Below are positions 22,611 to 29,664 of a DNA stretch of 64,000 nucleotides, in pieces; position 1 is the first letter of the stretch, and the number at the start of each line of letters is the position of its first letter. The notes under the pieces are model-generated. The model was not told the origin of the DNA and did no database searches. It saw nothing but the letters and a program-made list of their open reading frames with translations. Source of the stretch: Candidatus Saccharimonadales bacterium (GTDB taxonomy: Bacteria > Patescibacteriota > Saccharimonadia > Saccharimonadales > 2-12-FULL-41-12); contig JANWLD010000001.1 of NCBI GenBank assembly GCA_025451045.1, forward strand, positions 273,965 to 337,964, given 5' to 3'. A program made the position numbers and the translations under genes.

Positions 22611-23756
22611 GTGAACAAAAAAGCCATATATCTTGATTATGCGGCGGCCACGCCGATGGACGAAGCTGTTATTAAGGCGATGGAGCCGTATTTTATGGGT
22701 AAATTTTATAATCCGGCGGCAAACTATCTGTCGGCAAAGTCGGTAAAAGATGAGATAACCGAAGCTAAAAAAAGCGTAGCCGCCCAACTGGGAGCTAAGC
22801 ATACCGAAATCATCTGCACTTCCGGCGGTACAGAAGCCAACAATCTGGCAATTTCCGGCGTAATGGACAAATTCCCGCGCAAAAAGGTGCTAGCAAGCAA
22901 TATCGAACATGAATCGGTTTTGAAACCGGCCGAAAAATATGACCATAGCTTAATACCGGTTGATAAACGCGGAGCTATCAAGCTAGAATCATTAAAAAAA
23001 CTGATAACCAACGACGTTGTCCTAATAAGCGTGATACTGGCCAGCAACGAAACCGGCGCGGCCCAGCCGATTCGAAAAATCGCCGAGCTTATCAAGCAAG
23101 TCAGAAAGTCCCGACGAGCGAACGGTATCGGTTTGCCACTTTACCTGCATAGCGATGCCTGCCAGACGCCTTGTTATATGGATATCAATACCAACCGTTT
23201 AGGTGTTGACCTCTTAACGCTCAACGGCGGTAAGATTTATGGTCCCAAAGGCTCCGGAGTATTATTCGCCAAAACCGGGGTTGAGCCAAAGCCGCAAATT
23301 CTTGGCGGCGGACAACAGCAGAACCGGCGTAGCGGCACTGAAAATCCGGCCGCGGCCGCGGGCTTTGCCAAAGCACTGGAAATTGCTTCCGGCAAGCGAA
23401 AAGATGAGGCTGCAAGATTGGAAAAACTGCGTGCACAATTCGTTGAAGGCTTATTTAAAACCAATCCAAAAATCGTAATAAACGGCCATCCAAAGCAGTG
23501 CGCGCCGCATATCCTGAGCGTAACCTTTCCCGGCGCGGATAACGAACGCTTGTTATATCAGCTGGAAGAGAAAGGAATATTAGCCGCTGCCGGCTCGGCT
23601 TGTAGTGCCGCCTCGGACGAACCATCGCACGTGCTTAGGGCAATGGGCATATCCGACACCGATGCCCGCAGCTCTCTGCGTTTTAGTTTTGGCCGCGCTA
23701 CCACGTCGGCTGATATAAAACACCTGCTTGAAATACTTGGCAATCTGATTGCTTAA
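22611..23756 (+). CDS. cysteine desulfurase (class V aminotransferase, IscS/NifS family)
   Basis: The N-terminus reads IYLDYAAATP. The PLP-lysine region is present, and the catalytic Cys loop reads AAGSACSAA. Confidence 0.88.
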   Translation: MNKKAIYLDYAAATPMDEAVIKAMEPYFMGKFYNPAANYLSAKSVKDEITEAKKSVAAQLGAKHTEIICTSGGTEANNLAISGVMDKFPRKKVLASNIEHESVLKPAEKYDHSLIPVDKRGAIKLESLKKLITNDVVLISVILASNETGAAQPIRKIAELIKQVRKSRRANGIGLPLYLHSDACQTPCYMDINTNRLGVDLLTLNGGKIYGPKGSGVLFAKTGVEPKPQILGGGQQQNRRSGTENPAAAAGFAKALEIASGKRKDEAARLEKLRAQFVEGLFKTNPKIVINGHPKQCAPHILSVTFPGADNERLLYQLEEKGILAAAGSACSAASDEPSHVLRAMGISDTDARSSLRFSFGRATTSADIKHLLEILGNLIA

Positions 23757-24645
23757 AGAAATAACTAAGCGGTATAATCATAAGCGAAATCAATCTATAT
23801 TATTTATGCAAAAAACAAACATTAAAAACCGCTTCCTTTCCAAACTGCTGGCGTTTGCCGGGCTGTTGGTATTAATAAGCCTGAGTATTGCCGGTTCGCT
23901 GGCTGCCCAAAGTATAAACCAAGGCTACAAATCCGATGAAACCCTTCCAAATGGCACGCTGGTCAAACAAAAAGATAACGATGCTACGAAGGTTGAAGCA
24001 CTCAGCCAGGAAAGACTGCGCGACCTCAAGGGCATAGTTGTATCTGAAAATGATTCACCGGTAGTCATTGTGGGCAAGGACCAAAATGTCTTTGTGGCCA
24101 ATGACGGTACGCATATGGTACGGGTTAGTAATGAGAACGGAGCTATCAAACAAGGCGATTACCTCAGCATTTCATCGATAAAGGGCGTTGCTATGAAAGC
24201 GAATGATGAACAGCCGATAGTCCTTGGCCGCGCTGCCAGCGGATTTGATGGCGAAAAAAACGTTTTAAGTACCGTTAACCGAAAATCTGACAACAAGCCG
24301 ATTAAACTCGGCCAGGTAGATGCCTATATTGTCATCGGCGCTAATCCGTTTTTGAAGAAACCGCCGCCGCAGACAGTGCCTAAGTTGCTAAAAAATGTCT
24401 CTAACGAAGTCGCTGGCCGGCCGGTCAGCAATGCCCGCATTTGGCTGGCTTCAATAATATTTTTGGCTACCACTATTGTAACCGGGATTATGATTTACGG
24501 CGGTGCGAAAAGCAGTCTTCAGGCGATGGGCCGTAACCCGCTATCCAAAGCATCGATTCTGCGCGGCCTATTGCAGGTAGTAATATTAGGACTGATTGTT
24601 TTCATATGCGGTATATTTGGGGTATATTTACTACTAAAGCTTTAA
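23749..24645 (+). CDS. secreted protein with a C-terminal ATP-synthase c-subunit-like helical hairpin. The likely start is the ATG at 23806.
   Basis: There is a signal peptide MQKTNIKNRFLSKLLAFAGLLVLISLSIAGSLAA, followed by a soluble domain of about 190 aa. The C-terminus then reads TM-GGAKSSLQAMGRNP-TM, which aligns with the c-subunit loop GG..ARQP and helix 2 (LLR...GL...G.Y). The position of the conserved Asp/Glu is Ile. Confidence 0.55.
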   Translation: MLKEITKRYNHKRNQSILFMQKTNIKNRFLSKLLAFAGLLVLISLSIAGSLAAQSINQGYKSDETLPNGTLVKQKDNDATKVEALSQERLRDLKGIVVSENDSPVVIVGKDQNVFVANDGTHMVRVSNENGAIKQGDYLSISSIKGVAMKANDEQPIVLGRAASGFDGEKNVLSTVNRKSDNKPIKLGQVDAYIVIGANPFLKKPPPQTVPKLLKNVSNEVAGRPVSNARIWLASIIFLATTIVTGIMIYGGAKSSLQAMGRNPLSKASILRGLLQVVILGLIVFICGIFGVYLLLKL

Positions 24646-24667
24646 GCGTGGAAGAAGGGGCGGGCAA

Positions 24668-27233: not shown

Positions 27234-28096
27234 CCAGACTGACTGAAATAGAAAGAGAAACCGAAGCGATGTCGGCTCTAGTAGAATTAACTGGCGTCTT
27301 CGAAGGCATCGCCAGCCTGCAGATAGCCAGAGTTAAAAATCAGGTTTTGCAATCTACCCAGTTTTTCAAGGAGCTATGGTCTATTTATTCACAGTTGCGG
27401 GTAGACAGTCTGTTCCGCTATGGCCGCGGTTCCCACCACCCCAAAGTCAGCAACAAAGAACTGGTAATAGTCATAACTTCGGAAGGCGGATTCAGCGGCG
27501 ATATTGACCAGCGTGTTGTACAGCTTATGCTGGCAAATTATAACCCCGGCAAACAAGACATCATTGTCATCGGACGTCATGGCGTTACTCAATTGAACCA
27601 ACGCTCAGTCCCTATAAAAAAATATTTCGTTTTGCCAAAAAAAGATCAAAATATCAACACCGCGCCGATTACCAATTACATTCAACAGTATTCCAACACA
27701 GTCGTTTACTATCAGGAGTATGTTTCACTGATGAACCAGGCCGTAAAGTCGATATCAATAAATGCGGTAGTAGCCGAAATCGGCAGCAGGTCCGAAGAGC
27801 TGGAAAACGTAATCAGCGAAGAAACCTATATCTTCGAGCCAAGTACTCATGCTGTTGTCGGCCATTTGGAGCGCTCAATGCTAAAGATTGCTATCAGCCA
27901 GTTAATATTGGAGTCCAAACTGGCACAATATGCCAGCCGGTTTAGGGCTATGTCCGCTTCCCATCAAGCGGCTGACGACAGCCTTTATACGGCGCGGCTT
28001 AAATACAACCGGACAAAACGTTCCATAAAGGATGATCGAATAAAAGAAACTATCAACGGTATGAAAAAATCACAGATGAACAGAGGGGGCAATTAG
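27230..28096 (+). CDS. atpG: F-type ATP synthase gamma subunit (divergent)
   Basis: It sits between alpha and beta. The N-terminal helix reads IASLQIARVKNQV. The length of 288 aa fits. Confidence 0.65.
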   Translation: MTRLTEIERETEAMSALVELTGVFEGIASLQIARVKNQVLQSTQFFKELWSIYSQLRVDSLFRYGRGSHHPKVSNKELVIVITSEGGFSGDIDQRVVQLMLANYNPGKQDIIVIGRHGVTQLNQRSVPIKKYFVLPKKDQNINTAPITNYIQQYSNTVVYYQEYVSLMNQAVKSISINAVVAEIGSRSEELENVISEETYIFEPSTHAVVGHLERSMLKIAISQLILESKLAQYASRFRAMSASHQAADDSLYTARLKYNRTKRSIKDDRIKETINGMKKSQMNRGGN

Positions 28097-29401
28097 ATGG
28101 CTGGCATGGTGACTGCTGTCAAAGATTTGATAGTCATGGTCGGCTTTGACGCCGATGTGCCGCAAATAGGCGAGCTGGTAGAGATTGGTAATGAGAATAA
28201 AACCCAGCTGGTAGTCGAACGTCTAAATGTTAATGGGCAGGCGGTCTGTCTTAATCTGCGGGCTGACAAAACCATTCAAAAGGGTATGGCCGCCGAACGG
28301 CTGAAAAAAGGCGTAGAGATTCCGGTCGGCGACGAAACCATTGGCCGGATATTTGACGCGTTAGGCATGCCGCTGGATAACTTGCCGCCGCTAGATCCGG
28401 CCAAGACCAGTTATCGCAACGTGCTGGATATACCTATAAAGAATTCCAATTTTCAGGTTTCAAAAAATGAGGTGTTGGAAACCGGTATTAAAGTCATTGA
28501 TTTTCTGACCCCGTTCGTAAAAGGGCGAAAGATAGGCATCATCGGCGGCGCGGGTGTCGGTAAGACCGTGCTAACCATGGAGCTTATACATAACATCACC
28601 AAAACTGGCGCGGGCTTGAGTTTTTTTACAGGCATCGGTGAGCGAATCCGTGAAGGCCATGAACTTTATGACACGTTAAAAACCGCCAATTTACTGGAAA
28701 ACACCTGTATGTTCTTTGGACAAATGAACGAAAGTCCGGTTCAAAGAGCCTTGGTTGGCGTATCGGCGACTGCTTTGGCTGAATATTTCCGCGATGAGCA
28801 GGGCAAAGATATTCTATTTTTTGCCGATAATATGTACCGCTATGTCCAAGCCCGCAATGAGTTGGCATCAATATTGGACCAAGTACCAAGCGAAGGCGGT
28901 TACCAATCAACTATCTTCTCGGATATCAAAGTCCTGCAGGACCGGTTAAGTTCCAGCGACAATGGCTCGATAACATCAGTGCAGACCATCTATGTTCCGG
29001 CTGATGACATCAGTGACCCGGCAGTGCAGATGATACAGCATGAGCTTGACGCCATCTTGGTTTTAAACCGGGCCGTGGCTGAACAGGGCATCAGGCCGGC
29101 GGTCGATCTTATCAGGACTACTTCGTCGCTTTTGACACCGGAAGTCGTCGGCGACAGACATTATTTGCTCAGTGTCCAAGTGCAGGCGCTTATCCAAAAA
29201 TACGAATCATTAAAGAGCATTATTGCGGTCATCGGAGAGAATGAATTATCACCGACGGACAGGGCAGATTATTCCAAGGCAAAAAAGGTAATTTCCAACT
29301 TCTCCCAGAGTATGTTCGTGACCGAGAAGCTGAACGGCATACCCGGCGAATCATTTAGCCGCGACCAGACGCTTAAAAGCATCGAGGAGATACTGCTTTG
29401 A
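28097..29401 (+). CDS. atpD: F-type ATP synthase beta subunit
   Basis: The P-loop [10 protein letters not shown] and the GERIREG and DELSPTD-like motifs are present. Confidence 0.92.
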
Positions 29402-29664
29402 CAGAACAAACCAAGGTTTCAACACTGCACATAAAAATACATTCACCATACCGGACTTATTTTGATGGGCTGGCCTCTAGTATTTCGGCGACCAATGATA
29501 CCGGGCTGTTCGACGTTCTGCCCGAGCATCACAAGTTCATGACTATCTTGAACGAAGGTGAAGTAGTAGTCAGAGGCGACGGAGATGCCAAACAGGTTTA
29601 TAAGATTGACCGCGGCATTATGCATGTGCGTAATAATCAAGTAGTTGTATTCCTCGACGTATAA
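29398..29664 (+). CDS. atpC: F-type ATP synthase epsilon subunit (beta-sandwich domain only)
   Basis: At 88 aa it has the N-terminal domain pattern; the C-terminal helices are absent. Confidence 0.7.

Follow-up and report, generated by a model that had tools for sequence, protein, structure and literature searches.

The locus raises the question of whether a run of F-type ATPase genes with neither an a nor a c subunit gene among them is a broken ATP synthase operon or a machine in its own right. The window analysed, 64,000 nucleotides of contig JANWLD010000001.1 from Candidatus Saccharimonadales bacterium (an ultrasmall Saccharibacterium), was found to carry seven genes in the order cL-bL-deltaL-alpha-gamma-beta-epsilon (23806-29664, all on the plus strand, from the window ORFs). 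These genes, their parts and their flanks are as follows.

22611..23756, plus strand: cysteine desulfurase, IscS-like, left flank (Aminotran_5 in loci L001 and L002)
23806..24645, plus strand: cL, 279 aa; signal peptide, then a beta-rich ectodomain, then a c-subunit-like hairpin at the C-terminus
23806..23910, plus strand: cL signal peptide or signal anchor, MQKTNIKNRFLSKLLAFAGLLVLISLSIAGSLAAQ (translation; helix 6-29 in the model)
24424..24642, plus strand: cL transmembrane hairpin, 73 residues, gapless in the family
24529..24543, plus strand: cL cytoplasmic loop G-R-N-P-L, corresponding to the R-Q/N-P loop of c subunits
24668..25291, plus strand: bL, 207 aa, peripheral-stalk-like, N-terminal TM helix and 133-residue helix (AF2 model)
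25288..25809, plus strand: deltaL, 173 aa, delta/OSCP C-terminal domain (Pfam OSCP E=1.3e-4; NCBIfam delta E=2.3e-6)
25806..27233, plus strand: alpha, 475 aa, F1-like, P-loop GDSKSGKT (PF00006 E=9e-66; TIGR00962 atpA 390 bits against a cut-off of 484)
27230..28096, plus strand: gamma, 288 aa, F1-like (PF00231 E=6e-29; TIGR01146 85 bits against a cut-off of 194)
28097..29401, plus strand: beta, 434 aa, F1-like, catalytic motifs intact (PF00006 E=5.5e-63; TIGR01039 atpD 421 bits against a cut-off of 463)
29398..29664, plus strand: epsilon, 88 aa, N-terminal beta-sandwich only (PF02823 E=8e-16, residues 10-86)
29773..30819, plus strand: MnmA, right flank

Every gene of the putative b-delta-alpha-gamma-beta-epsilon set that the first-pass annotation had placed at 24668-29664 lies where it was claimed and, as that annotation also held, no a or c subunit gene (PF00119, PF00137) was found between the cysteine desulfurase and bL, nor elsewhere in the 64 kb. 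Four junctions (bL/deltaL, deltaL/alpha, alpha/gamma and beta/epsilon) overlap by 4 nt, and cL and bL are spaced by 22 nt. The F1 subunits were recognisable, yet every one scored below its NCBIfam equivalog cut-off. The divergent P-loop already noted in alpha was retained as GDSKSGK[ST] in 55 of 68 family members, and beta showed 73-89% identity within the family, with near-invariant catalytic motifs. Epsilon does indeed lack its C-terminal helices (family median 107 aa, a figure for which the underlying ORF calls may over-extend).

The cluster-specific beta was present in at least 577 species-representative genomes, apparently all Saccharimonadia, and in those genomes the cluster is located between iscS and mnmA. 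Synteny in relatives, which the first-pass annotation had proposed as a check, was kept from cL to epsilon in nearly all of 82 loci (locus L057 has cL, with bL and deltaL missing), and the IscS-like upstream neighbour (family 5) was conserved in 63 loci. Across the 82 loci no canonical c or second alpha/beta was found within 10 kb on either side, and no a-like gene in or near the cluster.

No significant match to Pfam or PDB sequences, and no sequence similarity to b, was found for bL; the earlier suggestion that this 207-aa protein is a b subunit agrees with the AF2 model, in which its architecture is b-subunit-like. The core of bL is extremely conserved (FREELRNRGRLHFEKIIGENAMFLQQDLRLTTSQ) and the family comprises at least 5540 database clusters. 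For the deltaL family profile, the best 15 matches in PDB were all OSCP/delta (E 0.005-0.33).

The start of cL at the ATG at 23806, together with a signal peptide, had been proposed in the first-pass annotation, and both fit a 100% identical database protein (P0001) of 279 aa and a signal-peptide-like N-terminus. Cleavage is predicted from the sequence after LAA and before QS, and the family alignment conserves A-Q followed by V-x-Q-G-Y. The AF2 model (pLDDT 86) displays a beta-rich domain at residues 37-179 and long helices at 209-243 and 245-278; the soluble domain is of about 170 aa rather than the 190 aa first estimated. The ectodomain bears a likeness to phage decoration proteins.

The R-Q/N-P loop of c subunits contacts gamma/epsilon. 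In cL, the corresponding GRNPL was invariant among 40 aligned homologues (GRNPL in 54/56 and GRNP in 56/56 locus copies), and in an alignment of 10 c subunits R and P were the sole invariant columns. The hairpin matches c subunits in length and topology, and the GxGxGxG packing motif is absent from its helix 1. The carboxylate position holds neither Asp nor Glu, as had been claimed, with the Ile then reported there belonging to that register and Leu occupying the position in the hhalign register; family-wide, the residues after the Pro are G/S at +17, L/I/F/V at +18 and I/T at +19. Full-length cL gave no ATP-synt_C match in Pfam at E<=1, a comparison that the first-pass annotation had proposed, and among 33 isolated hairpins one matched ATP-synt_C (E=0.21) and three matched T4SS_pilin (E of at least 0.011). 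The cL family profiles found no c subunit among PDB sequences at E<=10, and a c-subunit profile did not recover the cL family from locus ORFs. When aligned by hhalign with 10 verified c subunits, the hairpin placed its loop in register (P about 0.002-0.003), with a local score of 19.4 exceeding all 200 column shuffles (10.0 +/- 1.8, maximum 16.4) and a global score of 11.9 against 3.4 +/- 2.2 for shuffles; the hhalign probability was just 10-15%, with the signal chiefly from the 3-residue loop. Foldseek matches of the hairpin were nearly all c subunits, yet at E values of 0.1-0.7. The alignment of the hairpin with c subunits given in the first-pass annotation is partly supported, by hhalign and Foldseek, and was undetectable by Pfam/HMMER; homology to the c subunit is likely but unproven.

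Downstream of epsilon and before MnmA, a pilus-like operon was observed in 46 of 54 informative loci. All 46 also carry cL; two loci (plus the window) have cL and no pilus operon, six have neither and none has the pilus operon without cL (Fisher P=1e-6). cL was lost independently 4-5 times, each time in a lineage without the pilus operon, and in lineages lacking both the terminal branches of alpha/gamma/beta were approximately 2.2 times longer. The genes from bL to epsilon were intact without cL in eight loci (the downstream side being readable in six), so cL is dispensable for whatever those six genes do. In the window the epsilon-MnmA gap is 109 bp and no pilus operon lies within the 64 kb. 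The block in the 46 relatives matches the description of the pam operon, which encodes the Pam pili of Ca. Mycosynbacter amalyticus, the comparison with PamA/PamB being by description: it has several signal-peptide pilin paralogs, along with proteins that combine a signal peptide with a TM helix at the C-terminus. One pilin-like protein of the block gave no match to PDB sequences. The Pam-pilus preprint reports that ATP synthase genes consistently adjoin the pam operon and interprets them as a link to ATP production, and is silent on their missing a and c and on the c-like fusion (bioRxiv 10.64898/2026.03.03.709456).

We favour, at a probability of roughly 60%, the reading that the cluster encodes a second ATPase of Saccharimonadia, a paralogue of F-type descent that moves no ions and uses ATP to send torque or force to a structure at the cell surface. 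The cluster seems not to be the cell's ATP synthase and to be tied to the pilus system instead of to ATP making. In such a machine, an alpha3beta3 head, its catalytic motifs intact, would turn a shaft of gamma and short epsilon, with bL and deltaL as the peripheral stalk tethering the head to the membrane. cL would be the shaft's membrane partner, its two C-terminal helices a derived c-subunit hairpin, possibly assembled as a ring, with the R-N-P loop toward gamma/epsilon and the N-terminal beta-rich domain outside the cell. As there is neither an a subunit nor an ion-binding carboxylate, rotation could not be coupled to ion flow; ATP may be burned to rotate the cL assembly or put it under strain, and the torque or force would cross the membrane to a surface partner, for which the Pam-type pilus encoded beside the cluster in most relatives is the best candidate. 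No prior description of this machine was found in the literature.

Were bL-to-epsilon the cell's only F1 and stalk, serving an ordinary ATP synthase or ATPase with canonical a and c elsewhere and cL an unrelated protein, it would be natural that among NCBIfam models the F1 subunits are nearest canonical atpA/atpD and that annotation pipelines label the cluster proteins as F0F1 ATP synthase subunits. We consider this improbable. Canonical Saccharibacterial operons hold a and c beside b-delta-alpha, and in Southlakia the backbone MetRS-TatD-IscS-MnmA-AlaRS is shared without atp genes (with IscS-YdcF-MnmA-AlaRS in sequence), the sole atp operon being canonical, complete (atpZ-a-c-b-delta-alpha-gamma-beta-epsilon) and at a different locus. 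Alpha, beta and gamma are each present twice, and a, b and c each once, in three complete genomes (Ca. Saccharimonas aalborgensis, GWC2_44_17 and Ca. Mycosynbacter amalyticus), implying a whole canonical operon plus the cluster; some CAILAD01 metagenome-assembled genomes, up to 99% complete, have one each of alpha, beta, gamma and epsilon and no a, b or c (PMC12592800 Table S5). In the complete genomes, the additional alpha, beta and gamma presumably belong to the family of this cluster. Judging from these relatives, it is therefore probably the entire canonical F1Fo, and not just a and c, that lies elsewhere. The sub-cut-off scores, the epsilon without regulatory helices and a bL unlike b in sequence also argue against a split operon. 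Rather than a broken ATP synthase operon, the cluster is a conserved unit, apart from the canonical operon in relatives. Of the two alternatives left by the first-pass annotation, the remodelled complex with a fused c-like hairpin is thus favoured, and that of a and c genes elsewhere survives in modified form, as a whole F1Fo elsewhere.

A more serious competitor, though still a doubtful one, holds that cL is a pilus component (such as an anchor or platform in the membrane) and that bL-to-epsilon form a membrane-tethered F1-like ATPase with another role or partner, the c-likeness being coincidence or distant convergence. cL does vary with the pilus block and not with the six ATPase genes (six of the eight cL-less loci also lack the block), it is set off from bL by 22 nt, whereas all but one of the five junctions within bL-to-epsilon overlap by 4 nt, and its hairpins gave weak T4SS_pilin matches and cL no HMM match to c. 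Yet the ATPase genes always separate cL from the pilus block, with cL in the canonical atpE slot, and cL is kept in three pam-less lineages, the window included; a pilus component would have no need for an invariant GRNPL loop, predicted to be cytoplasmic; the Foldseek matches are c subunits and not pilins; and the faster evolution of alpha/gamma/beta after loss of cL and pam is expected if all three cooperate. It is very improbable that ions are still moved through a non-standard site, with another membrane protein as the stator channel. Position +12 of helix 2 would be such a site (Gln in 53/56 locus copies; in the 40-protein alignment, Glu in three members and Lys in five), and Asp stands at +17 in a single member (P0080), but Gln cannot be protonated or deprotonated, the rare Glu/Lys variants suggest that the residue makes a structural polar contact, no a-like gene accompanies the 82 loci and the cluster neighbourhoods share no conserved multi-pass membrane protein.

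The closest systems to this proposed ATPase are the mycoplasma Type 3 'F1-like X0' ATPase (MIB-MIP antibody cleavage) and Type 2 G1-ATPase (M. mobile gliding motor), in which ATP hydrolysis is thought to cross the membrane as force (PMC3369863, PMC12994834). These are likewise seven-gene clusters beyond the canonical F1Fo, with alpha-, beta-, gamma- and epsilon-like subunits and neither an a nor a recognisable c, in genome-reduced host-dependent bacteria and adjoining surface-machine genes. Neither this precedent nor the pilus link featured in the first-pass annotation. Unlike them, the Saccharimonadia cluster lacks the 12-TM protein and the small cytoplasmic protein, keeps the b-like and delta-like stalk that is absent there, and has in cL a small ectodomain resembling phage decoration proteins and a hairpin that retains the c-type RNP loop. 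The cluster scored far below the cut-offs of MSC_0618, MSC_0619, MSC_0622, MMOB1660 and MMOB1670 (NCBIfam), and lower than with atpA/atpD; it probably arose independently, in another phylum.

With the canonical F1Fo of Southlakia epibionticum (SEML1_0349-0358, atpZ-a-c-b-delta-alpha-gamma-x-beta-epsilon) the cluster shares the b-delta-alpha-gamma-beta-epsilon order, the motifs for catalysis in beta, a gamma subunit, the beta-sandwich of epsilon, the C-terminal domain of delta, b-like architecture and an R-N-P hairpin in the place of atpE. It differs in having no a, in a hairpin that has neither carboxylate nor glycine packing motif and carries a fused signal peptide and ectodomain, in an epsilon without C-terminal helices, in sub-cut-off scores throughout and in its chromosomal locus. 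N-ATPase (alternate F1Fo; TIGR03305, TIGR03324 and kindred models) is also a second F-type operon alongside the canonical one in some bacteria; it has a and c with an ion-binding site, no delta and the order atpDCQRBEFAG, and the cluster reached 329-392 bits with the alt_F1F0 models against cut-offs near 750. The export ATPase FliH-FliI-FliJ of flagella and T3SS is likewise related to F1, has in FliH a b/delta-like tether and serves a surface appendage and not bioenergetics, whereas the cluster has a heterohexameric alpha/beta head and true gamma and epsilon; FliI models scored far lower than atpA/atpD. Some bL proteins carry the name 'FliH' in JGI annotation.

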